The notes: a model not told the origin generated them from the sequence alone. DNA of 64,000 bases from an uncultured Verrucomicrobiae bacterium (GCA_963731325.1 CAVSUL010000002.1:151421-215420), one strand, 5' to 3'; positions 3,395-63,445 are shown, counted from the first letter of the stretch. Made by a program: numbers and translations.

Positions 3395-3545
3395 GCAGGG
3401 CAGCAGACGGACGAGCGGAGCTCGTCCCTGCCCCACTCCGATCGCGATGGACCGGTAGGGATCGCCTCCGGCGGTCCAGGATCGCGCGCCGCGCGGTCCG
3501 AGACCCAAGAACCGTCCTTTTGACAGGCCAGACGCGACCGGAGTT

Positions 3546-4304: not shown

Positions 4305-5135
4305 CTCTCGGCGGCGACCTGCCAATCCTCTTGAGATTGGACGATCATCACGCGAACTCTGGAATCGCCAGCAGCGATATCCATATCGGGGACACCTCTC
4401 CGATTTGCCTCGGCATGGAGTTTCACACCCAAAAAGCCGAACGGCTCACAGGCGCGCGCTCGAATCTCCGGTTCTGATTCTCCGATGGCGTCAGTAAATA
4501 CCAGCGCGTCCAAGCCGGCCAAACTGGCAATCATCGCACCAATTCCAGACCGGAGACGGTGGACAAACACGTCGATAGCCAGGGTCGCCCGGTTGTTTCC
4601 TTTCTTTGATTCCGGAAGGATTACCCTGGTATCACCCGGTAGGCCAGACAACCCGGCAAGACCGGACTCTTTGTTCAAAAGTCTTTCAAGCTGTTCCGGA
4701 GAAGCCCCTCTTTTTGCGAGATAAATCAGGATACCAGGATCTACCGAGCCGGATCGAGTGCACATCGCCACACCGTCGAGCGGCGTAAACCCCATCCGCG
4801 AATTGCGCTTCGCTCTTCCCAAAGACGGTCTCGGCGACTTTAATCCCTTCGAGCTGGACCGGATTGTGCAAAGGCGAGAACTCGTACTCGATCAACCACA
4901 TGTATAGACCTCTCCTCACAACAATCATCCACCTCAATCCCCCTCAACCCCCCCCCCCCCCCTCGCGGTTTTTGATCTTGATCAGCAGCTCCTCGGGCGG
5001 CTGATCCGGAGCCGTCGAATCAACTTTGGCTTGCCAGATCGGCGGACGAGGGCTTTCTGTCGAGGCATTTGCCGCAAAATCGAAAATCGCGAGTTTCTGA
5101 CTGCCGCTTCCGATGTTGAGAACAAGCATCAGCAT
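4265..5135 (-). pseudogene. ackA: Acetate kinase relic (in-frame stop, frameshift, internal deletions)
   Basis: Three ORF pieces match AckA. 4944-5135: MLMLVLNIGSGSQKLAIF (N-terminal ATP-binding motif). 4686-4937: EFSPLHNPVQLEGI. 4265-4822: MGFTPLDGVAMCTRSGSVDPG...VFTDAIGE. The total is only about 290 codons against about 400 for AckA. The segment carrying the DTAFH and GAHGTSH motifs is missing. Confidence 0.7.
4948..4962. repeat. Homopolymer C15 (G15 on the ackA coding strand)
   Basis: Counted directly: 15 consecutive C at 4948-4962. They encode the GGGGG just before the in-frame TGA that ends the first ackA fragment. Confidence 0.95.
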
Positions 5136-5156
5136 AAGAAAAGTCCTGTCTTTTGA

Positions 5157-7286
5157 TCACGGGCCAACGGCATTACGTGCAAAGAATTTCCTGATCTCGG
5201 CGAGTTCATTGTTGCGGACCACATCGTCCCAAGCAGCCTTGATTTCCGCTTTATCGGATCCGCGCAGATGCCAGGAAAGGGGCGCCTGATAGCCGGCGGC
5301 CATCTGTGGAAAGCTCACCGTCGCGAAGGTGATTCGAACCGGGTACACTGGATCCAGTTCCCAGCGCTTCGAGAATGCCGAAAAATCGCGTTGGGAAAAA
5401 CCGGTCTGCACCTGGTTTCGCACGTTCAACACGGCTTGAAGCGGCGAAAGCAATTGAAAAAATGGCCCGGATTCCGGCCGGACCGTTCCCGATTCTGCGA
5501 TAGGAAAAGGAAGGATCTGGATCACGAGGATTTCTTTCGACCGCTGGCCAGCCCCCTTGGCCGCCCGGGATTGAAGAGCCGCATCCAGCCAGGTCGTGAG
5601 GGCAACCAATCCCGAGTTGTCGAAATAACCTCCATCGACCAAGTGCAAGTCACCGTTTGCGACGGAATTTGCCAGATCGGGCCGGGCAGCCGGCGAGACA
5701 AAAGGGAAGGTAGCGGAGAGCCGGGCCGCGGTGGAGATCGCCACATCCCAATCGCCGTAAAGCGCATCAAAGTCCGCCTGTCCCTGGGCGATATCCTGAT
5801 TTCCGAAGTGAGAAGTTGAAAAGGTGAATCTTTGACCGGTCTCGACCACCGTGGCGTTGAAGATGACCGCCGGGAGCTGCCCAGCGGTTGTCTCTTGCCG
5901 CCATTCTTTTAGAGTCGCCGCTGCCAACAACGGTTTGCCCGACTTTGGAAAACGCGAGTCGCAACTGCTGACCCAGGCTCGCTCCAGGCCTCGAGCGCGA
6001 TCCTCCTCCCGGTCTTGAATCAGGAAAGGCGCGAGGATACGCATCAGGTCCGAATAAGCCAACCCCTGAACAGCTGGTCCCAGGCTCGAAGCTTCCGCCG
6101 AATCGATAATGTTTTGGGCAAGGCTCGCAGACTGGCCGGAAAGCGGAAATTCACCTTGCAAGTAATCCATCAAACCAACGCTGCCGCCAGAAACACCGCT
6201 GACAACGCGGATTGAACGAGCGAACGTTTGTTTCTCCGGATCGCCGAGAACGTTGTCGAGTCCTGTCAGAACCTGCGTGGTCCAAGCGGCCGCCTGGATT
6301 CCTCCGCCCGCCGCCGCGACCAGCACAAAAGGACGATCATCGGATTCAGCAGTATCGAGCAACTCGCCCGGGGAGGTGTGATCCGGTTCTGCGCTCTTTT
6401 GCGCTGTGGTAAGCGGGTAATAGTGGTCGGAGTTCGGGGAATGGGCAAACAAGGCCACCCAGATGATGAGTGGCAACAGTACCGGCACCCGGTAGGCATC
6501 GAAGAAGAAGGCGACGCCGGCAAAAAGCCAAACGTAGATTGCCGCCAGCAGCAACAAATAACCCAGCGGCGGCAGCGGCGCTCGGCGGACTCCAAGATAG
6601 AAAACGAAAAGAATCACTAGACTGAGGAAGGCCTCCACATGCGGTCGATAGATCCGCAATTTCCCCTCCTGGAACGTAAAGTACCCGCGCCAAAATTGTT
6701 TCGGCAGGAAGAAATTGGCCACTGGCACACGGATTAAAGGAGCGTCGGCCAGCTTTTGCAAAGCTTCATGCCCACGTTCTGTCGATCCAGGAACAAAGGG
6801 TAGTAAGACGAGTCGCGAAAACAGGTACAACACGATCCCGGAGACTAGGCCAAGAACAAATCCGCCGGCGATCTGAAACCAGGGCGCCCCGCTCACTAAC
6901 AGCAGGCAAACGAGATGAGCAACGACAATCAGAACGCTGGCGATATCCCTCACGATCTGGCCGATCGCGGAGCGACCGGGCAGAACATGTCCAATCCGCA
7001 CAGCGCCAAGACTGAGAACCGACTCGGACGTCATGCGAATTGCCCAAAGCGTCAGAAAAAGCAGGAAACCGACTGCAGCCGCCTCCCAAAAACCGGCGAG
7101 ATCGAACGCCCCAAGCAACAAACGGCTGCCGGTCCCGGAGCGAGCAAGAAACGGAAAGAACAAAAGGAGAGCGAGCGCCAGGAAGCTTATCCGGCACAGA
7201 TAAAGCCGCTGAGTGCCGAAGCCGATGATCAGGACAAGCAACCCAATGCCGGTGATCACCAAGGGGATCCACATTTTTTTGTGCAT
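5157..7286 (-). CDS. Polytopic membrane protein with C-terminal patatin-like phospholipase domain
   Basis: I start at MHKKMWIPLVITG (M76 of the 784-aa ORF) because the upstream 75 codons translate repeat copy 7378-7506. About 8 hydrophobic helices precede the patatin motifs AAGGGIQAAAW (oxyanion hole), GVSGG (GxSxG) and HLVDGGYFDNSG (catalytic DGG). Confidence 0.75.
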   Translation of the reverse strand: MHKKMWIPLVITGIGLLVLIIGFGTQRLYLCRISFLALALLLFFPFLARSGTGSRLLLGAFDLAGFWEAAAVGFLLFLTLWAIRMTSESVLSLGAVRIGHVLPGRSAIGQIVRDIASVLIVVAHLVCLLLVSGAPWFQIAGGFVLGLVSGIVLYLFSRLVLLPFVPGSTERGHEALQKLADAPLIRVPVANFFLPKQFWRGYFTFQEGKLRIYRPHVEAFLSLVILFVFYLGVRRAPLPPLGYLLLLAAIYVWLFAGVAFFFDAYRVPVLLPLIIWVALFAHSPNSDHYYPLTTAQKSAEPDHTSPGELLDTAESDDRPFVLVAAAGGGIQAAAWTTQVLTGLDNVLGDPEKQTFARSIRVVSGVSGGSVGLMDYLQGEFPLSGQSASLAQNIIDSAEASSLGPAVQGLAYSDLMRILAPFLIQDREEDRARGLERAWVSSCDSRFPKSGKPLLAAATLKEWRQETTAGQLPAVIFNATVVETGQRFTFSTSHFGNQDIAQGQADFDALYGDWDVAISTAARLSATFPFVSPAARPDLANSVANGDLHLVDGGYFDNSGLVALTTWLDAALQSRAAKGAGQRSKEILVIQILPFPIAESGTVRPESGPFFQLLSPLQAVLNVRNQVQTGFSQRDFSAFSKRWELDPVYPVRITFATVSFPQMAAGYQAPLSWHLRGSDKAEIKAAWDDVVRNNELAEIRKFFARNAVGP

Positions 7287-9682: not shown

Positions 9683-11056
9683 TTAGAGGAATTTCCCCGG
9701 GTTGAGCAGGTTTGCCGGATCGAGCGCGTCTTTGATCCGTCGATGCAATGCTTGGTTTTCCGCCGACACTGCGTTCGGCCACCAACGTTTTTTGGCTAAT
9801 CCGATACCGTGTTCGCCGGTAATCGCTCCACCCCAGGCAAGGACCTGGGCAAACAAGGCGTCGAGCGCCCGTTCCATTTTCTCGGCCACGCCGGGGCCGT
9901 CGGGGTCAGCAACCATGATATTCACGTGGATGTTGCCGTCTCCAGCATGGCCGAAGCAAGCGACCGGAAAGGTGTATTTTTTTTGCAGTCCAGAGGCAAA
10001 TTCGACCAGATCCACCAACCGACTGCGCGGCACAGTGACGTCTTCGTTGAGCTTTTTTAGCCCGGTCGCCTTCAGCGACTCAGAAAAGCCGCGCCGCAGG
10101 TCCCACAACCGCTCACAGGCGTCTTCACCGAATGCTGATTCAAGCGTCAGAGCGCCTGCCGATCGGACCAGACGAGCGAGGGCAGCCAACTCCGACTTCA
10201 CCGATTCGATCTGCCCGTCCAGATCGACAAGCAAGTGGGCTGCTCCCTCCGGTACAATCTGCCGGGACAGATGTTCCCGGGCCGCTTCCAGAGTGAACCG
10301 GTCAGCAATCTCCAAGGCAGACGGCAGATATCCCCTGGCAAGAATTAACTGCACCGCAGCGGCCGCTGCCTCGATCGTGCGAAAGCTGCCCGACAGAGAT
10401 CCTCGAGCGGGAGGCAAAGGCAGAAGCCGCAAGGTTGCTTCCGTCACCACGCCAAGCATTCCCTCAGAGCCGACAAACAACCCGACCAGATCAAATCCCG
10501 TTTTGTTCTTCAAGGTTCGCGCCCCGAGACGCACGACCGAACCGCCGATCAACACCACTTCGACACCCAGCACATAGTTCCGCGTTACGCCATATTTCAA
10601 GCAACGGGGTCCTCCGGCATTCGTGGCGATGTTACCGCCGATCGAGCTGTTCTTGAGACTGGCCGGGTCGGGCGGATAAAACAAGCCTTCTAGACGGGCG
10701 GCCTTTTGCAGGTCCCCGGTAATCACGCCGGGCTCAACCACAGCGATCCCGTCCGGCACGGAGATCTCCTTGATGCGAGTCATCCGAGCCAGGGAAAGCA
10801 CGATCCCGCCTCGCTCAGGCACACACCCCCCAACGTACCCATAGCCAGACCCTCGAGGTGTGATGGGTATCTGACGGTGGCCCGCAAACTCCAGGAGGCG
10901 AGAGACCTCGGCAGTGGAGGTTGGACTGACGACAACGTCCGGCCGATGCCGGGCGAACCACTTATCTCCACTGTTTTCCTCAAGCACCGCCGGATCAGCC
11001 GAAACGATCTCCGGACTAAAGAGAGCAATGAGATTTTGGAGGTCGCCAGAGTTCAA
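9683..11056 (-). CDS. FAD-linked oxidase, GlcD-like (glycolate/D-lactate oxidase family)
   Basis: 457 aa. The FAD-binding PCMH-type N-terminus (ITPRGSGYGYVGG) and C-terminal GEHGIGLAKK are typical of GlcD. The TTG start lies inside a decamer repeat, so the start is uncertain. Confidence 0.85.
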   Translation of the reverse strand: MNSGDLQNLIALFSPEIVSADPAVLEENSGDKWFARHRPDVVVSPTSTAEVSRLLEFAGHRQIPITPRGSGYGYVGGCVPERGGIVLSLARMTRIKEISVPDGIAVVEPGVITGDLQKAARLEGLFYPPDPASLKNSSIGGNIATNAGGPRCLKYGVTRNYVLGVEVVLIGGSVVRLGARTLKNKTGFDLVGLFVGSEGMLGVVTEATLRLLPLPPARGSLSGSFRTIEAAAAAVQLILARGYLPSALEIADRFTLEAAREHLSRQIVPEGAAHLLVDLDGQIESVKSELAALARLVRSAGALTLESAFGEDACERLWDLRRGFSESLKATGLKKLNEDVTVPRSRLVDLVEFASGLQKKYTFPVACFGHAGDGNIHVNIMVADPDGPGVAEKMERALDALFAQVLAWGGAITGEHGIGLAKKRWWPNAVSAENQALHRRIKDALDPANLLNPGKFL

Positions 11057-11090
11057 GGAAGTTCGGGGAAGTTGAAGGAAGTTCGAGGAC
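11051..11090. repeat. Period-10 tandem array (GGAAGTTC core), 4 units
   Basis: GTTCAAGGAA GTTCGGGGAA GTTGAAGGAA GTTCGAGGAC. On the gene strand this is GAACTTCC repeats ending at the glcD-like TTG start. Confidence 0.85.
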
Positions 11091-14974: not shown

Positions 14975-16048
14975 CTACAACCCAAGCAACTCACGCTGCC
15001 AAGCCATCAGAACCTCAGAACCGGCTCCCGGATCGCGCGCAACTCGTTCCAATGCTTGTCGGGGCGCTACGACGCCCGGATCCAACTCAAGCTCGACGGC
15101 CACCTTGTCTCGCTTGCTCTTCAGGTGTTCAAAAAGCTGATCCTGTTCAGGGGTCGAACGCAATCTTGGAGCTGGCTGCGCCTGTGGCCAAGCCGATTCC
15201 GGAAGACGCAACGCTTTCTCAATCGATTCCCGCAATCTTCTGCGTCGGCCGGAAGGTAAATGACCGGGCAGTTCTACAAAATCAGTCTCGGTTGCTCGCC
15301 GCGCAATGGCGATCAGATCCTCATTGCGCAGGATTTGAAAAGCGGGCCGATCGACCTGGCGAGCTTCGCCATCGCGCCAGAACCAGAGTTCCCGCAGCAC
15401 CGCAGACGCTTGACCTCGCAGAGCGGCGCTCCCGGGGATTTTCCAGACTTTTCCCAGATCACGCTCTCGATCCGCGGCGGCGGCCGCGACCGCCCGACCG
15501 CACGTTTCCTCAAACCACGACCAGCGCTGCCGGCTTTGCAGCAAAGCGGCTAAGCGGTCCCTCAAGTCCAGGAGATACCGCGTGTCGTTAAGCGCATATT
15601 CCATCATGGGACGAGTGAGCGGCCGCTTGGCCCAATTGGCTTTTTGCGAGGATTTCGGAAGATCAATTCCAAAGAAAAATTCCACGAGCGACGCGTACCC
15701 GACCTCTTTCAGCCCGGCGAGACGGGCCGCGTGGTACGTGTCAAAGACGTTAGCCGGAGAGAACCCAATCCCTCGCCGGAGCATCCGAAGATCATAATCG
15801 CAGCCGTGGAGGACCAACCGCTTACCCTCTAGCGCCGCGTTGAGCAGGGATAGATCGATCGCCGCGAGTGGATCGACGAGGATGTTCCGGTCAGGCAAGC
15901 CGATCTGGATGAGACAGAGCTTCTCGAAATAGCAATGGAGACTGTCACCCTCCGTGTCGAGAGCGACCGCGTTTGCCTGCGCGATGACGGCGCACCGGTC
16001 CGAGAGAGCGTCATTTGAGTCAATGAGCTCGGCCGCCTCAGTTATCAT
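14975..16048 (-). CDS. rnd: Ribonuclease D
   Basis: 357 aa. DEDD exonuclease motifs ([18 protein letters not shown]) and an HRDC-like C-terminus. 4-bp overlap with rho. Confidence 0.8.
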
Positions 16049-17361
16049 TTGCGCAAGGCGGTAAGCAACAGTTCGGCATTGCTCTTAGTCGCCTTCAGGG
16101 TCTGCAGAAGCACTTCCATCGCTTCGATCGCCGGCAGCTGGGCGAGCTTCTTCCGGAGAAGGGTCACCCGCTCAAATTCTTCCGGGTGATAAAGGAGATC
16201 GTCTCGCCGGGTCGCCGACTTCAGGATATGGATCGCCGGATAGACTCTTTTTTCGACGAGCGTGCGATCCAGGTGCAGCTCCATGTTACCGGTGCCTTTG
16301 AATTCCTCGAAGATCACTTCGTCCATCCGGCTTTCGGTATCGATCAGCGCGGTGGCCAGAATTGTCAGGCTGCCTCCTTCCTCTACATTACGCGCCGCTC
16401 CGAAAAATTTCTTCGGCTTCAGCAACGCTTTTGCTTCGACTCCGCCCGACATGATTCGCCCCTTGCCTGGTTGCAGAGCGTTGTAGCCGCGCGCCAAGCG
16501 GGTAATACTATCCAGCAGGATAACGACATCTTTGCGCAATTCGACGAGCCGTTTGGCTCGTTCGCTGACCAACTCCGCCACCTGGACATGTCGGGCCGGC
16601 GATTCATCGAAGGTGGAACTGAAGATCTCGCAGTCGAGCACACTCTTCAAGTCGGTCACTTCCTCCGGCCGTTCGTTGACCAGCAGCAGAATGAGATGAA
16701 CGTCGGGAGAGTTTGCCCGAATGGCGAGCGCAATATCCTTCAGGAGAATCGTTTTCCCGGTCCGGGGCGCCGCGACAATCAAGCCTCGCTGCCCGCGGCC
16801 AAGGGGGGCAATCAAATCGACCGCCCGCGCGCTAACGCTCTTTGTCCGAAGGTTTTCCAGGAGAATTCGACGATCCGGGAAAAGGGCAGTGAGTTGATCG
16901 AACTGCTTTGGCTCCTCCCATTTCTCCAAAGGGATGCGCTCGATCGAGATGACCTGCTCCAGCGCCATGAACTTTTCCTTATCCCGCGGCGGTCGAATCA
17001 CCCCCTTCACTTTGTGCCCTGCCCGTAAACCGTATTTTTTTAGAAAAACGGCGGGTACGTAGACGTCCTCGGGGCAAGGCGTAAAGTTGTACTTTTCCCA
17101 CCGAAGAAACCCGTAACTCTCATTGGTAAGTTCCAACATGCCTTCGGCTACGAGAGCAACGTCGCGGCCGGCGTAAGCTTTGAGGAGGTCAAAAATAATC
17201 TGATGTCGCGTTCGCTCGTGCGACGTCCGGAGAGGGAACTCGGCGGCCAGCTCGAGCAGCGTCGGATGGCTAAGCTCATGGAGGGTAGCCAGCTCCAACG
17301 TGGAGCCGCCTTCGCTTAAATACATTGAACCAGGAACAGTTCCCGGTGTTCGGTCATCCAT
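16045..17361 (-). CDS. rho: Transcription termination factor Rho
   Basis: 438 aa. Rho N-terminal/CSD region plus RecA-type ATPase with P-loop [12 protein letters not shown]. The start may instead be the internal MYLSEGG. Confidence 0.9.
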
Positions 17362-26716: not shown

Positions 26717-26765
26717 GCGTTTCACGTTTCGCATCTCACGTTTCGGGTTTCGCGTTTTAGATTTA
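26717..26765. repeat. Heptamer tandem array (GTTTCRC type), 7 units
   Basis: GCGTTTC ACGTTTC GCATCTC ACGTTTC GGGTTTC GCGTTTT AGATTTA. It starts 2 nt from the prmA ATG. Confidence 0.85.
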
Positions 26766-28053: not shown

Positions 28054-28196
28054 TTGGGACCTATGGGACTCATGGGACCCATAGGACTCATGGGACCTAT
28101 GGGACTCATGGGACCTATGGGACTCATGGACCCATAGGACTCACAGGACTCGTGAGACCTATGGGACCCATGGGACTTATTGGACCCATGAGCCCT
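28054..28196. repeat. 9-bp tandem array, 16 units (ATGGGACYY)
   Basis: TTGGGACCT ATGGGACTC ATGGGACCC ATAGGACTC ATGGGACCT ATGGGACTC and so on. One unit is 8 nt (28126-28133). Lies between convergent genes. Confidence 0.9.
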
Positions 28197-28723: not shown

Positions 28724-28760
28724 ATTTTTCGCGTTTCACGTTTCGGATTTCGCGGTTTTC
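28724..28760. repeat. Heptamer tandem array (GTTTCRC type), about 5 units
   Basis: ATTTTTC GCGTTTC ACGTTTC GGATTTC GCGGTTT, upstream of the SLT-like gene. Confidence 0.8.
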
Positions 28761-32660: not shown

Positions 32661-33053
32661 ATGCGATTTGATCCCGTACTTCTGCGACGAATTCACCGGC
32701 TCGGACTCGACGAGCACGATTTTGTGGAAATGTTCGCCCGCGCCGGCGGTCCAGGCGGACAGAACGTCAATAAAGTTTCTACCGCAGTGACGCTCCGACA
32801 CACCCGCTCCGGCACGGAGGTTACCGCGCAGGAATCGCGTTCGCAGTACGCCAACCGCCAGTCGGCCGCTCGTCGATTGGTTTCCCTGCTGGAGGAACGC
32901 GCCGCGGCGGTGTGCGCTCGGCAAAAAGCCGTCCGAGAAAAAGAACGGCGGAAACGCTCTCCGCGGCCACCGGCTTTGAAGCGGGAAATCCGCCGGAGTA
33001 AGGAAGGCCGGGCCGAACTCAAACGCCAGCGCCGATCCGTCGAGGCAGAATAG
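32661..33053 (+). CDS. arfB: ArfB-like peptidyl-tRNA hydrolase (RF-1 GGQ domain with basic tail)
   Basis: 130 aa, GPGGQNVNKV GGQ motif and a Lys/Arg-rich C-terminal tail. Confidence 0.75.
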   Translation: MRFDPVLLRRIHRLGLDEHDFVEMFARAGGPGGQNVNKVSTAVTLRHTRSGTEVTAQESRSQYANRQSAARRLVSLLEERAAAVCARQKAVREKERRKRSPRPPALKREIRRSKEGRAELKRQRRSVEAE

Positions 33054-33162: not shown

Positions 33163-33197
33163 GAGACGCGAAACGTGAAACGTGAAACGCGAAACGA
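33163..33197. repeat. Heptamer tandem array (GAAACGY), 5 units
   Basis: GAGACGC GAAACGT GAAACGT GAAACGC GAAACGA. This is the reverse complement of the unit at 26717 and 28724. Confidence 0.85.
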
Positions 33198-36111: not shown

Positions 36112-36624
36112 ATGAATCTCTGCTTGATCAAGGTTACTTCCACCCTGGTCTTGGTGGCTCTGCTGTTCACGGGTTGTGAGAATATGTCCCCCGAGACAAC
36201 TGGAATAATCAGCGGCCTGGCTGCCGGTGCGGCCGCCGGAGGTATTGCCAAGGCGGCGGGCGCTAGCAGCGGTACCGCAGTCGCTGTCGGACTTGCGACA
36301 GGAGCTGCCGCAGGAGCGATTGCCTACGTGATCTCCAAGCACGCCGCAACTGAGCGTCAACGCCGAATCGCCGAGGAACGCGCTCGCCTCGCTTACGAAA
36401 GAATGTCAGCGGAACGAAGAACGCAGGCCCATCGTACCCGCTACATCGCCGTATCCACTGTGCGGGAGAAAAACTCGACCGGCGCAAAAAGCGTCATGAT
36501 TTACGACACCCAAACCCAACAGGTAGTTGGCAATAATGTTTATGATGTCAAGACTGCCCCGCAGGACGGTCAGGTGACGAAGTTTGACACCGTCTCGGCC
36601 GAGTACGTCGGTACCGGGGCATGA
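36112..36624 (+). CDS. Lipoprotein with glycine-zipper segment
   Basis: Start taken at MNLCLIKVTSTLVLVALLFTGC (lipobox LFTGC). Contains the Gly/Ala zipper GIISGLAAGAAAGGIAKAAGASSG. Confidence 0.6.
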   Translation: MNLCLIKVTSTLVLVALLFTGCENMSPETTGIISGLAAGAAAGGIAKAAGASSGTAVAVGLATGAAAGAIAYVISKHAATERQRRIAEERARLAYERMSAERRTQAHRTRYIAVSTVREKNSTGAKSVMIYDTQTQQVVGNNVYDVKTAPQDGQVTKFDTVSAEYVGTGA

Positions 36625-36640
36625 TGGCCGAGGGCCCGCG

Positions 36641-36731
36641 GCCGATAGCCGATGACCGAGAGCCGATAGCCGATGGCCGATTACTGATTACTGATTACTG
36701 ATTACTGATCACTCCCGACTCCCGACTCCTC
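36641..36731. repeat. Heptamer tandem array, 13 phased units in three blocks
   Basis: GCCGATA GCCGATG ACCGAGA GCCGATA GCCGATG GCCGATT ACTGATT x3 ACTGATC ACTCCCG x2 ACTCCTC. It ends 2 nt before the MFS ATG at 36734. Confidence 0.92.
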
Positions 36732-36733
36732 CC

Positions 36734-38044
36734 ATGCCCTACCCCCAGGCATCCATCGTTGTGTCCGAAGAGCCGGTTTACGCGAAAGTCGCCGGCCGTC
36801 TCATCCCGTTCCTTTTTCTCTGTTATATCGTTGCCTATCTTGACCGGGTAAACGTCGGGTTCGCTAAGTTGCAGATGCAAGCGGACCTGAAGTTCAGCGA
36901 CACCGTATTCTTCTTTGGTGCCGGCATTTTTTTTGTCGGGTATTTCCTGTTCGAAGTTCCCAGCAATCTGATTCTCGAACGAGTCGGCGCGCGCTTTTGG
37001 ATTGCCCGGATCATGATCAGCTGGGGAATCATCTCCTCGCTGACAATGTTCGCGCATTCCGCGTTTCTTTTTTATCTCCTCCGATTCTTGCTCGGTGTAG
37101 CGGAAGCGGGTTTTTTTCCGGGAATTATTCTTTACCTGACCTATTGGTTCCCTTCGCCGCGGCGAGCGCATGTGACCGCGCTATTCATGTCGGCCATTGC
37201 TCTTACAGGAGTCATCGGCGCGCCGATCTCCGGCTGGATTATGCACGTTTTTTCCGATTCTACCGGGCTGCGGAGCTGGCAAATGCTTTTCCTGATTGAA
37301 GGAATTCCGTCGATCGTAGTGGGTATCCTGGTGCCATTCGTTTTACCGAACGGAATTCGACAAGCTAAGTGGCTGGACGACGCTGAGAAACGTCATCTGG
37401 AGGAAAATCTGCGTCTGGAAGACAGCCGTAAAGTGGCCTTGCCGCTCCGGCAGGTTTTCGTCGATCCAAGGCTGCTGCTCTTTTGCCTCATCTATTTCTG
37501 CTGTGCCGGCGGTCTGTACGGCGTTGGCTTCTGGCTGCCGCAACTCATCAAGGACACTGGCGTTAAGGATCCGCTTCCGATCGGGCTGTTGACCGCGATC
37601 CCCTATGCTCTTGCGGCTGCTGCAATGATCTGGTTTGGCTGGAACTCGGACCGCACCCGGGAACGGCGCTGGCACTTCGCTGCCGCCGCGCTCATTGGTG
37701 CAATCGGCCTGACGATCAGCGCACGGTTTGCTCATCAGACGGGCCTGGCTATGGCCGGCCTTTCGCTTGGGGCAATCGGGATTCTCTCTACCTTCCCTCT
37801 ATTCTGGCCGATGCCTGCCGGTATGCTGAGCGGCACCTCCGCTGCGGCCGGGATTGCCTTGGTAAACTCGGTTGGAAATCTTGGAGGATTTGTCCTTCCG
37901 TTTCTGGTCGGCTGGCTCAACGATCTGACCAGGCAATCGACTTCCGGACTCCTGCTGCTTGCTGCCTCAATGGTACTGGCGGGCGCGCTGGTAGTTGCGT
38001 TTGTTCCAAAAACTTTGCCCGGGGATGAGGTGGGAAGTCGGTGA
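36734..38044 (+). CDS. MFS transporter (anion:cation symporter-like)
   Basis: 436 aa with about 12 hydrophobic helices. YLDRVNVGFAKLQM is typical of ACS-family MFS. Confidence 0.85.
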   Translation: MPYPQASIVVSEEPVYAKVAGRLIPFLFLCYIVAYLDRVNVGFAKLQMQADLKFSDTVFFFGAGIFFVGYFLFEVPSNLILERVGARFWIARIMISWGIISSLTMFAHSAFLFYLLRFLLGVAEAGFFPGIILYLTYWFPSPRRAHVTALFMSAIALTGVIGAPISGWIMHVFSDSTGLRSWQMLFLIEGIPSIVVGILVPFVLPNGIRQAKWLDDAEKRHLEENLRLEDSRKVALPLRQVFVDPRLLLFCLIYFCCAGGLYGVGFWLPQLIKDTGVKDPLPIGLLTAIPYALAAAAMIWFGWNSDRTRERRWHFAAAALIGAIGLTISARFAHQTGLAMAGLSLGAIGILSTFPLFWPMPAGMLSGTSAAAGIALVNSVGNLGGFVLPFLVGWLNDLTRQSTSGLLLLAASMVLAGALVVAFVPKTLPGDEVGSR

Positions 38045-38071
38045 AGCGTTGGAGCGAGGCAATTCAGTATT

Positions 38072-38162
38072 CCGTAATCGGTCATCGGCCATCGGCCATC
38101 GGTCATCGGTCATCGGCCATTGGTCATCGGTCATTGCCCATCGGCCTTCGGCCATCGTCTTC
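38072..38162. repeat. Heptamer tandem array (CGGYCAT), 13 units
   Basis: CCGTAAT CGGTCAT CGGCCAT CGGCCAT CGGTCAT CGGTCAT CGGCCAT TGGTCAT CGGTCAT TGCCCAT CGGCCTT CGGCCAT CGTCTTC. Confidence 0.92.
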
Positions 38163-38207
38163 GATTTTTCTTTCCACCAGACCTCCATTGACCTGAGATC
38201 GAAGACG

Positions 38208-38954
38208 ATGGCCATTTGTGAGTTACATTATTTCAGCTCTGCCCTGCAGAAGCAGACTGCGGCCAACGTGATTTTCCCGGAGAACGAGTCCGGTCCTTTC
38301 CCGGTGCTCTACCTGTTGCATGGGCTTTCCGACGATCACACGATCTGGATGCGGCGAACGAGCCTCGAGCGCTATGTTGAAGGGCTGCCGCTCATCATTG
38401 TGATGCCCGACGGCGGTCGAGGTTTTTATACGGACGCCGCAGCTGGCTTCGCGTATGAGACCGCTCTGATCCGCGATCTGATCGGTCTTGTCGATCGGAC
38501 CTTTCAGACTCAGACCGCACGACGCGGCCGCTGCATTAGCGGACTGTCAATGGGCGGGTACGGCGCGTTAAAGCTCGGGTTGAAACATCCGGATCTGTTT
38601 TGTTCGGCCGTCAGTCACTCGGGCGCGCTGAATTTCGGGCAAAGCGGCGGCCGTTATCAGCTTCCGGAGTTTGCGCGTATTCTGGGTGATCCGTCGACCG
38701 GGAAGCCGCACAGCCTCTACGCTCTGGCGGAGACCGTTGATCGTTCGCTTGTACCGGCACTGCGAATCGACTGCGGAACCGATGACGAGTTGATCGAAAA
38801 CAATCGTGAGTTTCACGCGCACCTCACGAATCTCGGTTTGCCGCACGAGTATGAGGAATTCCCGGGGGGACACAATTGGGCGTATTGGGACACGCACGTC
38901 CAAGAGGCAATCCGTTTTCACGCAAAGCATTTGGGAATAACCGCTCAGGTCTGA
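38208..38954 (+). CDS. Esterase (esterase D / S-formylglutathione hydrolase-like alpha/beta hydrolase)
   Basis: Start taken at MAICELHYFSSAL, because the ORF-track N-terminus translates the heptamer array. GLSMGGYGAL nucleophile elbow. Confidence 0.8.
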   Translation: MAICELHYFSSALQKQTAANVIFPENESGPFPVLYLLHGLSDDHTIWMRRTSLERYVEGLPLIIVMPDGGRGFYTDAAAGFAYETALIRDLIGLVDRTFQTQTARRGRCISGLSMGGYGALKLGLKHPDLFCSAVSHSGALNFGQSGGRYQLPEFARILGDPSTGKPHSLYALAETVDRSLVPALRIDCGTDDELIENNREFHAHLTNLGLPHEYEEFPGGHNWAYWDTHVQEAIRFHAKHLGITAQV

Positions 38955-39071: not shown

Positions 39072-39836
39072 TCAGTAACTCACCTTATTTTTCCGGCACC
39101 ACTCGATTGCCCGGGCATTGCCCGCCTTGGCCGCGCGCCGGAAATAGTCCGCCGCAGCCTTTGGATCCTTCGGTACGCCCAGTCCGCTGAAATACAGAGT
39201 TGCCCCTAAGGAATAAATGTCAGCCCGAATATCAATATCCAGTTCTTCGAGCTGTTCCGGGCTCGCAAACAACGGCGTCCCAACGAAACCGCCGCCAAAC
39301 GTCAGGGTGCCTGATTCATCCCCGACTGCCCGGGCACTTTTGGCCAGGCCGAAGTCAATGACCTTGACGATGCGTTCCCCATCCTGGTCGACCAACATCA
39401 GGTTAGCCGGCTTCAGATCGCGATGAACCAGGTTCTGTTTCGCTGCCGCGCCGAGAGCACGACTCACCTGTAAAGCGATGTCCAGCGCTTCCTTCGCTGG
39501 CAAGGGGCCATGCCGGCGCAAATAATTATCGACAGTTTCGCCGTCGATAAACTCCATTGCATAGAAATACTTGTCATCGAGGTCACCGAGATGAAAAACC
39601 GAAGCAACGTTCTGGTGACGGAGGGCCGCCGCAGCCCGAGCTTCCCGCAGGAATCTCTGGCGCGCGACGTCGTTTTCCAGGTAGGTGTTGTTGATTACCT
39701 TGAGCGCGACTGGGCAACGCAGGCTCGTATCAAAGGCTTTGTAGGTGATCCCCATGGCTCCACGGCCGAGTTCCCACAAGCTTCCGTCGTCCCGCTTGAG
39801 AATTTGATAATGCTGATAACGCTCCTCGTCCGCCAT
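39072..39836 (-). CDS. Ser/Thr protein kinase catalytic core fused to a single Sel1-like repeat (short form)
   Basis: Start taken at MADEERYQHYQIL. Contains GRGAMGITYKA, HRDLKPANLML, DFGLAK and GTPLFASPEQ. Straight after DIYSLGATLYF comes GVPKDPKAAADYFRRAAKAGNARA. Confidence 0.75.
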   Translation of the reverse strand: MADEERYQHYQILKRDDGSLWELGRGAMGITYKAFDTSLRCPVALKVINNTYLENDVARQRFLREARAAAALRHQNVASVFHLGDLDDKYFYAMEFIDGETVDNYLRRHGPLPAKEALDIALQVSRALGAAAKQNLVHRDLKPANLMLVDQDGERIVKVIDFGLAKSARAVGDESGTLTFGGGFVGTPLFASPEQLEELDIDIRADIYSLGATLYFSGLGVPKDPKAAADYFRRAAKAGNARAIEWCRKNKVSY

Positions 39837-39910
39837 GATCGCCAAAAAGGTTACAATTTGCCGAAAAGGCGGATAGCAATCAAGGAGGGCCTTTGGCGTC
39901 CTTCTCGGCT

Positions 39911-39940
39911 TGAACTTCTCCGAACTTCCCTGAACTTCCG
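39911..39940. repeat. Period-10 tandem array (GAACTTCC core), 3 units
   Basis: TGAACTTCTC CGAACTTCCC TGAACTTCCG, then CC ATG (start at 39943). Confidence 0.85.
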
Positions 39941-39942
39941 CC

Positions 39943-40863
39943 ATGTCCGTGCTCATCGTCGGCTCTATCGCCATCGACACCATCAAGACCCAGACCGAGG
40001 AACAGGCCGACCTGCTTGGGGGTTCCGCCTCCTACGCCTCGGTCAGCGCCAGTTTCTTCGATCCAGTCAACCTGGTCGGTATCGTTGGTTCGGATTTTCC
40101 CCGCACGCATATCGACCTGTTCCGGTCGCGCCGGATCGACCTTGCCGGGTTGGAAATCGCCGACGGCCGGACGTTTCGCTGGACGGGCGAATACGAGGCC
40201 GACATGAACAAACGACGCACCTTGCACGTTGAGCTGAACGTGTTTGAAACTTTTAGCCCAAAGTTGCCCGCGGGCTATCGAGAAACGCCCGTCGTGCTGC
40301 TGGGCAACATCAGCCCGACACTCCAAGCAAATGTTTTGCATCAGACCAGGGATCCACAGTTCGTGATCGCCGACACGATGGATCTCTGGATCACGACGAT
40401 GCGGAGCGAGCTGCTCGAACTGCTCAGCCAGGTTGATCTGCTGGTCTTGAACGATAGCGAAGCACGCCAATTGACCGAGCACGACAACCTGATGAAGGCG
40501 GCCAAAACGATCCTGGATCTCGGTCCCAAGTACGTTGTCATCAAGAAAGGCGAGCACGGTTCCTTATTGATCTCCCGCGACGAGTTCTTCAGTTGCGCTG
40601 CATTCCCACTGGAGGATCTCATCGATCCTACGGGTGCAGGCGATGCGTTTGCCGGGGGGTTGGCCGGTTATCTGGCCGGATTGAAGCAATCGCGATTCAG
40701 CTTCGAAGATCTCCGAAAAGGCGTCGTGCGCGGTAGCGTGGTGGCCAGCTACAGCGTCGAATCGTTTAGCTTGGACCGGTTATTGCGGCTAAGTCCGAAA
40801 GATATCGAAGACCGTTACGACGCGTTCCGGCGGATCACGCACTTTGAGATCGTCGAAAAGTAA
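39943..40863 (+). CDS. PfkB-family carbohydrate kinase
   Basis: 306 aa, C-terminal DPTGAGDAFAGG signature. Confidence 0.8.
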   Translation: MSVLIVGSIAIDTIKTQTEEQADLLGGSASYASVSASFFDPVNLVGIVGSDFPRTHIDLFRSRRIDLAGLEIADGRTFRWTGEYEADMNKRRTLHVELNVFETFSPKLPAGYRETPVVLLGNISPTLQANVLHQTRDPQFVIADTMDLWITTMRSELLELLSQVDLLVLNDSEARQLTEHDNLMKAAKTILDLGPKYVVIKKGEHGSLLISRDEFFSCAAFPLEDLIDPTGAGDAFAGGLAGYLAGLKQSRFSFEDLRKGVVRGSVVASYSVESFSLDRLLRLSPKDIEDRYDAFRRITHFEIVEK

Positions 40864-43203: not shown

Positions 43204-43252
43204 GATTAAGGATGACCGATGGCTGATGGTCGATGGCCAATCACCGATTGCC
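43204..43252. repeat. Heptamer tandem array (GATGRYC, complement of CGGYCAT type), 7 units
   Basis: GATTAAG GATGACC GATGGCT GATGGTC GATGGCC AATCACC GATTGCC. Confidence 0.85.
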
Positions 43253-43432: not shown

Positions 43433-43516
43433 CGGTCGATGATGATCGGTTATCGGTCATCGTCTTCTCCCGATTCCTTATCCTATTTGCGAATCGGCGA
43501 TTTGCGATTTGCGATT
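43433..43516. repeat. Heptamer tandem array, 12 phased units of mixed sequence
   Basis: CGGTCGA TGATGAT CGGTTAT CGGTCAT CGTCTTC TCCCGAT TCCTTAT CCTATTT GCGAATC GGCGATT TGCGATT TGCGATT. Confidence 0.8.
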
Positions 43517-43536
43517 TACTGGCGGCTATTACGTTC

Positions 43537-50783: not shown

Positions 50784-51644
50784 ATGATTCGAGCGCGTAA
50801 GGTAGGCAGAAAAATCGTGTCTGTAAACGGGATGACTGTGCCAGTACCAACTGTTCTCCATCTGCGGTGTTCCCTCAATGAACTTGCACTGACACTGACA
50901 CTGGCAATGACACTAGCCCCGGCAATGACCCCTGCCCGCACAAATGCGAACGTGGCTGAGATCGTACCCGAGCTGCGCTCTGCTCGACAGCTCGTTCTGG
51001 TGAAAACACGCTCCTGGCGAGATCTGAACGCGACAGTCCAGCTGTTTGAACGCCCCATGTCCGGTTCCTGGCAAGCGAGCTCTCCCGCGATGCCAGCTGT
51101 GATCGGATGGCACGGGCTTGGCTGGGGCATCGGCCTTCACGGAACCGGGGTTTCCGGGCAGCCGCAAAAGGTGGAGGGCGATGGCCGATCGCCAGCCGGT
51201 GTGTTCCGGTTTTCCGAAATCTTCGGCAAAGCGGCTCCACGGACCGTCTCCTTTCTCCGCCTGCCTTATCGACAGGTCACCCTGACCATGGAGGCCGTTG
51301 ATGACCCGCGGTCGCGCTTCTACAACCGGATTGTGGATCGAGCCGTGGTTGACCAGCCTGACTGGTTGCATTCGGAAGGAATGGCCCGCGTTGGCGGACA
51401 GTACCATTGGGGGTTAATGGTGGAACACAACTGGCAGCAAATGGCCGGACGGGGCTCGTGCATTTTCCTTCACGTCTGGGCTGGCCCGCATGGTGGCACA
51501 ATTGGCTGTACTGCCCTGAGTGAAGGCGATCTGGAACACCTCTTGCGCTGGCTCGATCCGAGCGCTCAACCGCTGCTTGTGCAATTGCCCGAGTCGGAAA
51601 TTGCCAAACGCGGAAAAGCCTGGGGGCTTCCGGAAGATCAGTAG
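50784..51644 (+). CDS. L,D-transpeptidase (YkuD) family protein; start uncertain
   Basis: Catalytic region GSCIFLHVWAGPHGGTIGCTAL (His ... Gly-Cys). The N-terminal codons ALTLTLAMTLAPAMTPA are encoded by a hexamer array. In-frame alternative starts at ATG 50832 and GTG 50952. Confidence 0.65.
   Translation: MIRARKVGRKIVSVNGMTVPVPTVLHLRCSLNELALTLTLAMTLAPAMTPARTNANVAEIVPELRSARQLVLVKTRSWRDLNATVQLFERPMSGSWQASSPAMPAVIGWHGLGWGIGLHGTGVSGQPQKVEGDGRSPAGVFRFSEIFGKAAPRTVSFLRLPYRQVTLTMEAVDDPRSRFYNRIVDRAVVDQPDWLHSEGMARVGGQYHWGLMVEHNWQQMAGRGSCIFLHVWAGPHGGTIGCTALSEGDLEHLLRWLDPSAQPLLVQLPESEIAKRGKAWGLPEDQ
50887..50934. repeat. Hexamer tandem array, 8 units, inside the 5' end of the L,D-transpeptidase ORF
   Basis: CACTGA CACTGA CACTGG CAATGA CACTAG CCCCGG CAATGA CCCCTG. 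Confidence 0.8.
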
Positions 51645-51721
51645 TCAGTAATCAGTGATCAGTAATTCAGGAGTCGGCATCATTCGCATCGGTCATCGGT
51701 CATCGCTCATCGGTCATTGGT
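51638..51721. repeat. Heptamer tandem array, 12 units, filling a convergent spacer
   Basis: TCAGTAG TCAGTAA TCAGTGA TCAGTAA TTCAGGA GTCGGCA TCATTCG CATCGGT CATCGGT CATCGCT CATCGGT CATTGGT. Confidence 0.9.
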
Positions 51722-52371
51722 CAGCCAACTTCAGCAATTAGTCGTAGATCTGCTACAAAATCATCGAAGGCTTTCTTCTGCTGCGCTTCGTCCGGCGCAC
51801 GAAGAATCGACGATGGATGCACGGTGACCAACGTCCTCTCGGCATACCGCGAAGCAATCCATCGTCCACGGTCTTTCATCACTCGGACAGTCTTTCCGAA
51901 AACCGCTGTTGCTGCGGTCGCTCCGAGACAGACCAGCACTTTCGGCTTGAGCGCCCGTAGCTCGGCCTCAAACCAGCCACGGCATTGCTCGATATCACGT
52001 GCAGTCGGGGTCTGATGAATCCGGCGTTTACCGCGCGGTTCCCATTTGAAATGTTTGACTGCGTTGGTGACGTAGCATGCCGTGCGGTCCGCGCCCGCCG
52101 CTGCCAATGCCCGGTCAAGAATCATTCCAGCCGGTCCAATGAAGGGACGCCCCTCTCGATCTTCCTGGTCACCAGGTTGTTCTCCCAGAAGCACCACTGT
52201 CGAACCCGCCGGGCCCTCGCCAAAAACAGTTTGAGTCGCTTTTTTGGCAAACGGGCAAGCCAGGCAGGTGCGTGCCGCCTCCTTCAACTCAACCAGATCG
52301 GTTGTGTCCGGAACGAAAGGCTTTTCGCAATTCGCGTGATCGGCCATTCGTTTCTTTGAGGTAGCGTTCAT
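51721..52371 (-). CDS. Uracil-DNA glycosylase, family 4
   Basis: Start taken at MNATSKKRMADH. Motifs GEQPGDQED and HPSSILR, plus N-terminal Cys residues (CLACPF) as in Fe-S family-4 UDGs. Confidence 0.85.
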   Translation of the reverse strand: MNATSKKRMADHANCEKPFVPDTTDLVELKEAARTCLACPFAKKATQTVFGEGPAGSTVVLLGEQPGDQEDREGRPFIGPAGMILDRALAAAGADRTACYVTNAVKHFKWEPRGKRRIHQTPTARDIEQCRGWFEAELRALKPKVLVCLGATAATAVFGKTVRVMKDRGRWIASRYAERTLVTVHPSSILRAPDEAQQKKAFDDFVADLRLIAEVG

Positions 52372-61756: not shown

Positions 61757-61809
61757 TTTCGGTCATCGCTCATCGGTAATCGGTATCGCTCGTCGCTCGT
61801 CGGCCATTA
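61757..61809. repeat. Heptamer tandem array (GGTCATC type), about 7 units
   Basis: GGTCATC GCTCATC GGTAATC GGTATCG CTCGTCG CTCGTCG GCCATTA, beginning directly upstream of the lysS ATG (61754-61756). Confidence 0.85.
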
Positions 61810-61817
61810 GCCCTCAG

Positions 61818-63176
61818 TTACTCAAACCGGAGCGCCTTCACCGGGTCAAGCCGGGCCGCAAAGTAAGCCGGGATCAAGGCGGCGATTGAACAAATCACGA
61901 ACCCGCTCAGGCAGATGATCATCAGGTCGCGCGGCACAATCTCCGCCGGGATCTCCGGGAACTGATAAACCGACGCCGGAAATAGCTGGATGTGAAAAGT
62001 CGCTGAGAGGAAATCGCGCACTTCATTGCGATACTGAACCAGAACAATGCCGGCCACCAACCCGATGAGGGTGCCAAAGAATCCGACGATCATCCCCTGG
62101 GCCAGAAAGATCCACAGAATCTGGCTGACTTTCGCGCCCAGCGCTTTCATAACGCCGATCTCCCGCGTTTTCTGGACCGTGGTGGTAATGAGGGTACTCA
62201 TGATACCGAAAGCAGCGACGATGACTACGAAGATCAGCACGAAAAACATCGTTGTCCGTTCAATCCGGATCGCATCGAAATATTCCTTATTATCATCGAT
62301 CCAGGTCGCGGCCGCGACCGGCGCCGGCAGGAATTTGTTCAGGCGGGTTTTCACCTCATCAGCATGAAACGGGTCACCTGTTTTCACCTGAATCGCGTGA
62401 ATGGCATCGCCCAGCCCGTAAGCTTCCTGTCCGATGTGCAGCGGGACAACGACATACTCAGAATCGTAAATGTACCGACCCGAATTGAAGAGACCGGTAA
62501 TCGTCAGTTGGGTTGGCAATACGAGGTTGAGCGCTTTTTCGACGTGTTCTTTATTGCCAGGTTCATTCTCCGCCTTTTTTAGCTCATCGGTAATCACTCC
62601 CAGATTGCCCGGTGAGTAGATCGTCAGGGTGTCGCCGACACTGCAACCAAGGCTTTCGGCAAGATCGGTCCCAATCACGCAGGTGTCGCCGGTCAGATCG
62701 AATTTCCCGACAACGATGAAATGCTCGAAATCGGTGACAGCTCGTTGTTTGTCGGGTTCAACGCCCAGAAGCCAGGGGGATAAGCGCCGGTTCTGGAATT
62801 CCGCAATAACCCGCCCTTGCATAACGGGGGCTGCCGCCTGCACTCCTGGGGTATGCTCGACTTCGGTCAGGATCTCCCGCCAATTGGTGATCAGTTGCGG
62901 GCTGCGAATCATGATGTCGGATTCGAAACCAATGATCTTGCGGATCAGCTCGCGTTCGAAGCCGGTCATCACTGAAATTACGATGATCAGCACGCTGATC
63001 CCCAGGACTACGCCAAAAATCGAGATCAGCGTGATCAGCGAAAGAAACGTTCGTTTCGGCCGAAGGTAACGAAGCGCGATAAAAGCGGAGAAAGGCAGCC
63101 GAATCGGCCGAGCGTTCCGGGCGACATCGGGCACCAGACTTGAAGGGGCAGGCCGTTGAGATGTTTCAGTATCCAT
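61818..63176 (-). CDS. LolC/LolE-type lipoprotein-release ABC permease (FtsX/MacB-like)
   Basis: Start taken at MDTETSQRPAP. FIALRYLRPKR N-terminus, a large periplasmic loop, and a C-terminal FtsX helix bundle ending in LDPVKALRFE. Confidence 0.85.
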   Translation of the reverse strand: MDTETSQRPAPSSLVPDVARNARPIRLPFSAFIALRYLRPKRTFLSLITLISIFGVVLGISVLIIVISVMTGFERELIRKIIGFESDIMIRSPQLITNWREILTEVEHTPGVQAAAPVMQGRVIAEFQNRRLSPWLLGVEPDKQRAVTDFEHFIVVGKFDLTGDTCVIGTDLAESLGCSVGDTLTIYSPGNLGVITDELKKAENEPGNKEHVEKALNLVLPTQLTITGLFNSGRYIYDSEYVVVPLHIGQEAYGLGDAIHAIQVKTGDPFHADEVKTRLNKFLPAPVAAATWIDDNKEYFDAIRIERTTMFFVLIFVVIVAAFGIMSTLITTTVQKTREIGVMKALGAKVSQILWIFLAQGMIVGFFGTLIGLVAGIVLVQYRNEVRDFLSATFHIQLFPASVYQFPEIPAEIVPRDLMIICLSGFVICSIAALIPAYFAARLDPVKALRFE

Positions 63177-63445
63177 CAAAAGGAGACAAAGCCCAATACA
63201 TGGCACAGAGCAGCGGAGCCGCAACCCAATCGTGCTCGTGCTGGTGCTCGTTGTCGCCCTCGAAAACACGTAAATGTGGCTTCCGCAGCTTCTCGATCTA
63301 CAAAAAAATGACCTTGGCGCGCTAGAATGGCAACCAAAGGCGAATAAGCGCATATCCGAGGACTAGCACGAGCACGAGGCACGGACAGTATCCTCGGAGG
63401 AAAAGAGATTCTCGAGGGAAGCGGTATACGCCGAAATCCCACAAA

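Follow-up and report, generated by a model that had tools for sequence, protein, structure and literature searches.

The short tandemly repeated repetitive (STRR) sequences are 7-bp tandem units in which a few families are dispersed over many intergenic sites, and STRR1-3 have the unit sequences CCCCAGT, TTGGTCA and CAACAGT. Their hosts are mainly heterocystous cyanobacteria. It has been suggested that they act in the stability of transcripts or in coupling translation (PMC2670836). The TAACTGA repeats (MacGregor 2015, PMC4679880) are found in marine Beggiatoaceae, cyanobacteria and Bacteroidetes, mostly in forward orientation a few nucleotides (nt) 5' of start codons. For cyanobacteria and Bacteroidetes it is reported that close strains differ by indels in steps of 7 nt, that different heptamers share one spacer and that close relatives can lack the arrays (PMC4679880), and Xanthomonas species show extensive variation in the length and sequence of heptamer arrays (PMC4692102). 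Heptanucleotides are the most abundant class of long simple sequence repeats (LSSRs, with 5-11-nt units) in most of the genomes analysed, and polymerase slippage has been proposed as the cause (Mrazek et al. 2007, as far as summarised in PMC4679880 and PMC4692102). A literature search for heptamer or tandem repeats in Verrucomicrobia or Chthoniobacter returned nothing relevant. Here we describe heptanucleotide arrays in the intergenic spacers of a 64,000-nt stretch from an uncultured Verrucomicrobiae bacterium (GCA_963731325.1 CAVSUL010000002.1:151421-215420), the whole of which is called the window. These arrays are probably hypermutable heptanucleotide microsatellites of the published LSSR/STRR class, a reading to which we give a probability of about 0.7.

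The heptamer arrays are real and highly non-random. An earlier note on this DNA had announced at least ten arrays but listed nine, and eight of these nine sites were recovered as period-7 arrays by Tandem Repeats Finder (TRF), mostly with 0% indels (spans 26717-57, 33161-96, 36641-36729, 38077-38157, 43211-52, 43485-517, 51637-66, 51687-723 and 61759-802). The strict period 7 that was claimed for them holds for the best arrays and not for 28724-28760, 43433-43516, 51638-51721 and 61757-61809, which are weak, split or broken by an indel; 28724-28760 gave no TRF period-7 row and fell below the stricter lag-7 threshold. Period-7 arrays covered 434 nt of the window by TRF, about 17-fold the 26 nt that 20 dinucleotide shuffles gave on average. 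In the stricter lag-7 test on the 36 spacers (6.5 kb), 353 nt in 6 spacers were covered, against a mean of 0.3 nt and a maximum of 31 nt in 200 shuffles, a several hundred-fold excess. Lags of 4, 5, 6, 8, 11 and 12 gave 0 nt each in the same spacers, and across the whole window lags of 4, 5, 8, 11 and 13 gave 0 nt each, compared with 393 nt for lag 7. In this lag comparison the only other arrays were one of 9-mers and two of 10-mers. Coding sequence makes up 90% of the window, yet 377 of the 393 lag-7 nt are intergenic, and no heptamer array was found within the reading frames of the window. The tandem runs are longer than composition predicts and 7-nt units dominate over other non-triplet lengths, as is expected of LSSRs.

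Repeats in metagenome-assembled genomes (MAGs) are prone to mis-assembly, and several array-flanking genes gave no second contig of the same strain in exact-protein look-ups (none via MFS, lysS, esterase, UDG-family, lipoprotein, ribE, prmA or P0001; sodA alone matched). Nonetheless, an origin of the arrays in assembly or sequencing errors, or in composition by chance, is effectively refuted and has a negligible probability. The arrays of the ilvB/sodA spacer are identical in L161, an independent short-read (Logan) assembly of the same strain, homologous but differing arrays are present in another MAG and in several JGI metagenome contigs, and the excess over shuffles is several hundred-fold in the spacers and about 17-fold in the window. 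The earlier note had named a lack of enrichment over shuffles and invariant length among relatives as outcomes that would speak against it; the enrichment was found to be very large and the lengths to differ.

The nine sites, counted from the first letter of the window, are as follows.

26717-26765, minus strand: GCGTTTC/ACGTTTC array (GAAACGY family), in the divergent spacer between the prmA ATG (26714) and an aminotransferase gene (26867); lag-7 identity 0.64.
28724-28760, minus strand: short weak array of the GAAACGY family, in the spacer from the citrate synthase stop (28836) to the start of a glucosaminidase-domain gene (28711); lag-7 identity 0.60.
33163-33197, plus strand: five GAAACGY units, between an RF-1-domain (ArfB-like) gene (stop at 33053) and ribE (stop at 33203), which converge here; lag-7 identity 0.86.
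36625-36733, plus strand: exemplar spacer of 109 nt, from the lipoprotein stop to the MFS start, heptad-like throughout; lag-7 identity of the core array 0.80.
38072-38162, minus strand: array of about 12 units reading ATCGGYC on the plus and GRCCGAT on the minus strand (TRF 11.6 copies), in the spacer from the MFS stop (38044) to the esterase start (38208).
43204-43252, plus strand: GATGRYC array (GRCCGAT family), in the divergent spacer between an ilvB-like gene and sodA; identical in L161.
43433-43516, no strand assigned: composite, part-decayed stretch; lag-7 identity 0.55 overall, centre non-periodic.
51637-51723, minus strand: four TCAGTAR and five CATCGGT units with 21 degenerate nt between them, in the convergent spacer between the stops of a YkuD-domain gene and a UDG-family gene.
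61757-61809, minus strand: TCGGTCA/TCGCTCA array, filling the 61-nt spacer that runs from an FtsX-family permease gene (stop at 61818) to lysS (ATG at 61756).

In the exemplar core (36641-36731) the units run GCCGATA GCCGATG ACCGAGA GCCGATA GCCGATG GCCGATT, then ACTGATT three times, ACTGATC, ACTCCCG twice and ACTCCTC, followed by CC and the ATG. The composition is six GCCGATR/ACCGAGA, four ACTGATY, two ACTCCCG and one ACTCCTC unit. All 13 units lie in one phase (start positions mod 7 = 3), and TRF resolved the core into three sub-arrays, GCCGATA, GATTACT and ACTCCCG, with 0% indels. Its last unit stops 2 nt short of the MFS ATG (36734). The earlier account of 13 in-phase units nearly filling a 109-bp spacer and ending 2 nt from the MFS start was confirmed, and so was the placing of arrays at the prmA start (2 nt from the ATG) and at the lysS start (directly adjoining the ATG). 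The array at 38072-38162 is the inverted counterpart of that at 36641. On the minus strand, 51637-51723 reads GRCCGAT units and then TTACTGA units, which is the composite order of 36641. The stretch at 43433-43516 contains CGGTYAT units (GRCCGAT family, minus strand) at about 43440-43460 and a GCGATTT array at 43485-43517, just 5' of sodA (43537). One phase-breaking indel was found in 61757-61809 (TRF 5% indels).

By protein similarity the host is a Chthoniobacterales-like member of the Verrucomicrobiota and not a cyanobacterium. The MFS relatives, from Verrucomicrobiota/Chthoniobacterales MAGs and soil metagenomes, showed protein identities of 93% (L001), 87% (L162-164), 79% (L002) and 72-73% (L003 and L081), and no relative closer than 73% was obtained in the metagenome scan. 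The idea of STRR-like heptanucleotide arrays in a non-cyanobacterial genome was thus borne out, the closest loci being from Verrucomicrobiota/Chthoniobacterales MAGs.

Compared with the known systems, the arrays share with LSSRs the 7-nt tandem runs beyond chance, the intergenic position, the sporadic distribution in phylogeny, the unit-step length change and the proposed slippage origin. Among the richest genomes in the available summaries of LSSRs are those of Burkholderia, cyanobacteria, actinobacteria and Xanthomonas, whereas the host of the window belongs to Verrucomicrobiota. With STRR they share the 7-bp tandem units and the few families dispersed over many intergenic sites, here within 64 kb, but the host is in another phylum than the STRR hosts (loci at 72-93% protein identity). 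The likeness to named STRR units, which the earlier note had pointed out, is approximate only. No tandem dimers of CCCCAGT, TTGGTCA, CAACAGT, TAACTGA or GGGAATC were found in the window, and TTGGTCA was present only as a single variant unit in the TCGGTCA arrays. TCGGTCA differs from TTGGTCA by one mismatch, for which the estimated chance probability is roughly 0.05-0.08 per family. The TAACTGA repeats (PMC4679880) resemble the present arrays in often lying directly 5' of starts without Shine-Dalgarno sites, in mixed heptamers per spacer, 7-nt strain indels and absence from close relatives, and in a suspected link with rearrangement. The nearest unit of the window, TTACTGA/ACTGATT, is one mismatch away and belongs to a minority family, and TAACTGA itself occurs as three singletons. 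Unlike the TAACTGA system, the arrays of the window show no bias of direction toward start codons; they are found in all spacer types and in both orientations, and two of the nine lie between stop codons. Arrays between stop codons are also reported in Microcystis (PMC4679880). The G-quadruplex repeats GGGAATC/GGGGAYT of Xanthomonas and Nostoc (Rehm et al. 2015, PMC4692102) are similarly intergenic arrays between conserved housekeeping neighbours, with variation in length and sequence between related species and an occasional inverted-repeat arrangement. They differ in that GRCCGAT, GAAACGY and ACTGATT have no G3 tracts and only the two or three ACTCCCG units give short C/G runs; no tandem GGGAATC or GGGGATT was found in the window, and no array has at least four tracts of at least three G. 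Simple sequence repeats of phase variation in host-adapted pathogens are comparable in that unit changes near promoters or 5' untranslated regions could alter expression. The arrays of the window differ in lying beside housekeeping and not surface or virulence genes, in occurring also in 3'/3' spacers and in being absent from reading frames. With no coding arrays, housekeeping neighbours and no sigma-70-like hexamers inside them, they do not have the features of contingency loci.

Array length differed between relatives by whole units, as LSSRs do between strains. A heptamer array, of the unrelated units TAACCTC/AACCTAG, also reaches up to the MFS start in a second Verrucomicrobiota lineage (MFS 59-62% identical). 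The number of TAACCTC units at the MFS start is six in L086 and L094, five in L087 and about three in L089. Over 250 nt that are otherwise near-identical in these metagenome contigs, L087 is exactly one TAACCTC unit apart from L086 and L094. In L005, two CAACTTC units were seen upstream of the MFS gene. L001 shows about 83% nucleotide identity to the window in the flanking genes, and the array 5' of its MFS gene runs GCTGATA GCTGATC GCCGATA GCCGATG ACCGATT ACTGAAT ACCGAAT, and further on CTTCTGA twice, CTCCTGA and CTCCCGA twice, a mix unlike that of the window. For the array 3' of the MFS gene, the unit number is about 12 in the window and about 6 in L001. Both the one-unit difference of L087 and the difference of about 6 and 12 units fit a slippage-type process acting in unit steps, as the earlier note had suggested.

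The trait is patchy: two separate lineages are rich in arrays, and sister lineages at 72-87% protein identity have few or none. The density of period-7 arrays was as follows.

Window: 6.3 nt per kb.
L001: 17.1 nt per kb.
L005/L086 lineage: 10.5 nt per kb.
87% lineage: 1.5 nt per kb.
72-79% lineages: 0 nt per kb.
73 non-Verrucomicrobiota loci fetched with the same query: 0.19 nt per kb.

A further locus, P0005 (78% identity), is non-syntenic and without arrays.

A few unit families recur among the arrays. The GRCCGAT family, in either orientation, was found at six loci (36641, 38072, 43204, 43433, 51687 and 61757), the GAAACGY family at three (26717, 28724 and 33163) and the ACTGATT family at two (36683 and 51637). 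The families are clustered locally, GAAACGY within 26.7-33.2 kb and GRCCGAT within 36.6-61.8 kb. Within arrays, adjacent units are most alike and junction units are intermediate (GCCGATT before ACTGATT, ACTGATC before ACTCCCG), and pooled unit identity at lags of 7, 14, 21 and 28 was 0.76, 0.71, 0.66 and 0.60, a monotonic decay. Selection on helical periodicity, which had been offered as one reason for the phasing, finds no support in this steady drop without a peak at 21 nt. A 21-nt superperiod of two helical turns, hinted at by TRF period-21 rows, was rejected on the same ground. Conservation of phase as a constraint was not upheld either, as boundaries between unrelated units are arbitrary and in L001 the ACTYCYG sub-array is offset by 1 nt from the GCCGAT/ACYGAW sub-arrays. 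Where units are related, mutation and local amplification keep the phase automatically, and the 1-nt offset in L001 indicates that register across unit types reflects array growth and not constraint.

From the unit-step indels and the neighbour-biased similarity of units we infer a slippage step. The reason for period 7 is likewise inferred and follows the published suggestion that 7 nt corresponds to the stretch of DNA which the replicative polymerase engages (Mrazek et al. 2007, as far as summarised in PMC4679880 and PMC4692102). In the proposed course, a short heptamer duplication in non-coding DNA would expand and contract by whole units through strand slippage at replication or unequal exchange. 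Point mutations would give variant units, which are then amplified locally, so that the array drifts between unit types with register usually kept. Arrays would persist in spacers only, because a 7-nt step is a frameshift in coding DNA, and growth would halt at a selected sequence such as a start or stop codon; growth up to that point would explain why spacers are filled and ATGs abutted. As a class the arrays would have no dedicated function, with altered leader length, local pairing and recombination substrates as possible side effects.

The neighbouring genes are of ordinary kind. The window is ordinary chromosome with argS, rho, RNase D, DAHP synthase, fabI, prmA, aminotransferase, citrate synthase, sucCD, ribE, ilvB-like and sodA genes, and further with a UvrD-family helicase, a MiaB/RimO-like enzyme, the UDG-family gene, lysS and others; the rho gene lies at 16045-17361. 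The arrays adjoin housekeeping genes (prmA, gltA, ribE, ilvB, sodA, lysS and the UDG-family gene) and are distributed over divergent spacers (prmA/aminotransferase, ilvB/sodA), tandem spacers (gltA to glucosaminidase-domain gene, lipoprotein to MFS, MFS to esterase, FtsX-family to lysS) and convergent 3'/3' spacers (RF-1-domain gene/ribE and YkuD-domain gene/UDG-family gene, the arrays at 33163 and 51638). The earlier placing of the arrays in 5' leaders is therefore not supported: two of the nine lie in convergent spacers, the 38072 array begins 27 nt past the MFS stop, and one unit family occurs in both orientations. Shine-Dalgarno-like motifs (GGAG/GAGG/AGGA) precede 7 of 54 gene starts in the window, and this genome seems to make little use of such sites. 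An array that reaches an ATG would hence displace nothing that the genome obviously needs, and expansion may be tolerated for this reason.

The same positions can be read in another way, in which the arrays are cis-regulatory leader or promoter elements that bind a protein (S1, a Csp- or CsrA-like protein, a transcription factor) or pair with starts, and unit number tunes or switches the downstream gene. Several arrays adjoin start codons (MFS, prmA, lysS), the MFS orthologues of two distant lineages both have start-abutting arrays though with unrelated units, and in a genome poor in Shine-Dalgarno sites other leader features may matter. A translational role has been proposed for the start-proximal TAACTGA repeats of Beggiatoaceae (PMC4679880). 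Pairing with a start was predicted at one gene.

38150-38213, plus strand: perfect 19-bp hairpin, in which 38150-38168 pairs with 38195-38213, the latter holding the esterase ATG (38208).

This predicted hairpin is built from the last units of the 38072 array and the flank, with a free energy of -35 kcal/mol (z -5.6), and an inverted-repeat search returned 16 nt of 100% complementarity here. In L001 an equivalent hairpin of 11 bp (z -1.5) is predicted at the esterase start, and it can form because the start context there, ACCGATGGC, is one repeat unit in inverse orientation. The ancestral start context of the esterase gene, GCCGATGGC, as seen in L162, equals one repeat unit. Against a regulatory function stand the position of two of the nine arrays between convergent genes, the presence of one family in both orientations relative to genes, the diversity of the units and their replacement between relatives while the genes stay conserved, the unrelated housekeeping nature of the neighbours and the orthologous spacers of the 72-87% lineages, which are without arrays. 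The arrays also have no intrinsic structure: RNA folding of five heptamer spacers gave no gain over shuffles (z -0.9 to +0.4). A sigma-70 promoter scan was at chance level and showed no promoter-like hexamers within arrays. A general regulatory role is therefore disfavoured and appears unlikely.

Structured leaders, riboswitches or terminators as an account of the heptamer spacers were dropped, as these spacers fold like their shuffles. Rfam at gathering thresholds and a tRNA scan of the whole window gave no match, and a terminator-like scan gave 36 hits against a shuffle mean of 20.3, with none in a heptamer array. Between the aminotransferase and glucosaminidase-domain genes, which converge, the quasi-palindromic 9-mer TGGGACCCA forms a 15-copy array at 28055-28190, for which higher-order repeats of 18-mer and 62-mer type are alternative readings. 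In contrast to the heptamer arrays, this one folds to a long hairpin (-78.5 kcal/mol, z -7.3), and it may be a bidirectional terminator or an element like the repetitive extragenic palindromic (REP) sequences.

The surroundings of the exemplar have been rearranged. Two genes are concerned.

36112-36624, plus strand: small lipoprotein gene with an LFTGC lipobox and a glycine-zipper region; absent from L001.
36734-38044, plus strand: MFS transporter gene, between two inverted arrays.

The nucleotide alignment of L162 to the window fell into three blocks, 40858>38206 (minus), 36732>38019 (plus) and 36620>34098 (minus). In the comparison with L162-164, L003, L004 and L081, the single gene that is turned round with respect to its flanks is the MFS gene, and both breakpoints are within array-bearing spacers. 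In L003, L004 and L081 the MFS orientation relative to the kinase and epimerase genes is the same as in L162, which makes the orientation in the window and L001 the derived one. The inverted arms flanking the MFS gene (36623-36713 and 38066-38156) are 71-91 nt long and 73-80% complementary, those of L001 30-34 nt and 71-80% complementary, and the ACYGAWT end faces the MFS gene on both sides. The lipoprotein gene was flipped earlier: in the outgroups it runs in the same direction as the MFS gene, in L162 in the opposite one. In L001 it is deleted, and the deletion edge coincides with an array edge. No arrays or inverted repeats were found at the flanks of the lipoprotein and MFS genes in L162. 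The esterase/MFS spacer of that lineage (L162 6675-6794) has no heptamers; a GC-rich direct repeat about 50 nt long (CTCCCGCCTTCGCYTCCGCTACGCTT...GCTACGGCGCGGCA) is present there twice, at a distance of 69-70 nt. As far as sequence comparison goes, the MFS flip would fit recombination between inverted arrays or a breakpoint-associated duplication. As the flanks in L162 are free of arrays, the arrays could postdate the inversion.

These features raise the question whether the arrays are copies of a dispersed composite element (GRCCGAT>ACYGAWT>ACTCCYG), spread by active or recombinational copying, of which inverted copies drive rearrangements such as the MFS flip. The families and the composite order GRCCGAT>ACYGAWT recur at three to four loci, namely 36641 (plus), 38072 (minus), 51638 (minus) and 5' of the L001 MFS gene, and the local clustering of the families is in line with copying. 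The MFS gene lies between inverted arms both in the window and in L001, its inversion relative to L162 and three outgroups has its breakpoints in array-bearing spacers, and the deletion of the L001 lipoprotein gene stops at an array. For Bacteroidetes and Microcystis, too, it has been suggested that heptamer arrays take part in gene rearrangement (PMC4679880). However, we see no transposase, terminal structure or target duplication. Only two substitutions separate ACYGATT from ACCGATG, so the composite could arise repeatedly, and when the most frequent family lies to either side of a gene, the prior for inverted orientation is about one half. In the L162 lineage the MFS gene retains its ancestral orientation and neither flank has arrays, and the earlier inversion of the lipoprotein gene has no repeats beside it in L162. 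A dispersed element as the source of the arrays is accordingly judged distinctly unlikely. A related proposition is that the composite array is copied between spacers, that inverted pairs act as recombination substrates which flip single genes such as the MFS gene, and that arrays may also form start-sequestering hairpins, as at the esterase ATG. We put it forward tentatively and consider it rather doubtful; if true, microsatellite arrays would be drivers of micro-inversions and of operon and leader re-wiring in free-living soil bacteria.

Some observations weigh against the arrays being simple hypermutable microsatellites. The short imperfect arrays of the ilvB/sodA spacer are unchanged in the second sample of the same strain (L161; one comparison), and identity of short arrays within a strain implies that the mutation rate is not extreme. 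The recurring families and the composite order are not predicted by independent slippage at random seeds. To account for the recurrence of a few families across loci, slippage has to be supplemented by some copying or exchange between them or by a sequence preference; the same unexplained property is reported for the cyanobacterial STRR and the TAACTGA repeats (PMC4679880). The predicted 19-bp hairpin at the esterase start could point to local selection, and so could the start-abutting arrays at the MFS gene in two distant lineages.

Several other repeats and one gene difference were noted in the window. The decamer GAACTTCCNN is present in 3-4 copies at 11050-11089 (minus) and 39905-39942 (plus), in sense and directly 5' of two unrelated genes, an FAD-linked oxidase gene (9683-11056) and a PfkB-family kinase gene (39943-40863). 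At 4927-4962, about 100-140 nt upstream of a minus-strand gene starting at 4822, 15 consecutive C (G when read on the minus strand) adjoin 2.7 copies of ATCCCCCTCA, a possible site of homopolymer slippage. Repeats of hexamer/18-mer period (CACTGA/ACTGGCAATGACACTAAC and TCGTGC/CGAGCA) were found at 50882-50937, inside the YkuD-domain open reading frame (50784-51644), and at 63230-63383, across the start of the FtsX-family gene (61818-63353) into the adjoining spacer. Their coding parts are in frame, which fits survival of only triplet multiples in coding DNA. The Ser/Thr kinase gene at 39072-39986 codes for 304 aa in the window versus 816 aa in L162 (87% lineage; 3407-5857), with about 1.7 kb between the kinase domain and the C-terminal Sel1 repeat absent from the window.

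The earlier description was largely right, and the points worth following are the patchy distribution among lineages and the array-flanked inversion. With these arrays, the preference for 7-nt units among bacterial tandem repeats is extended to soil Verrucomicrobiota (Chthoniobacterales type); the feature is mostly familiar and the lineage is new. In such genomes, short-read assemblies are probably interrupted at the arrays, and gene starts are probably harder to call. Their patchiness offers a natural comparative design for asking which replication and repair systems make 7-nt arrays, with replisome, mismatch-repair and recombination genes as the ones to compare. The MFS locus, with heptamer arrays at both breakpoints of a single-gene inversion, provides a concrete case that can be tested.

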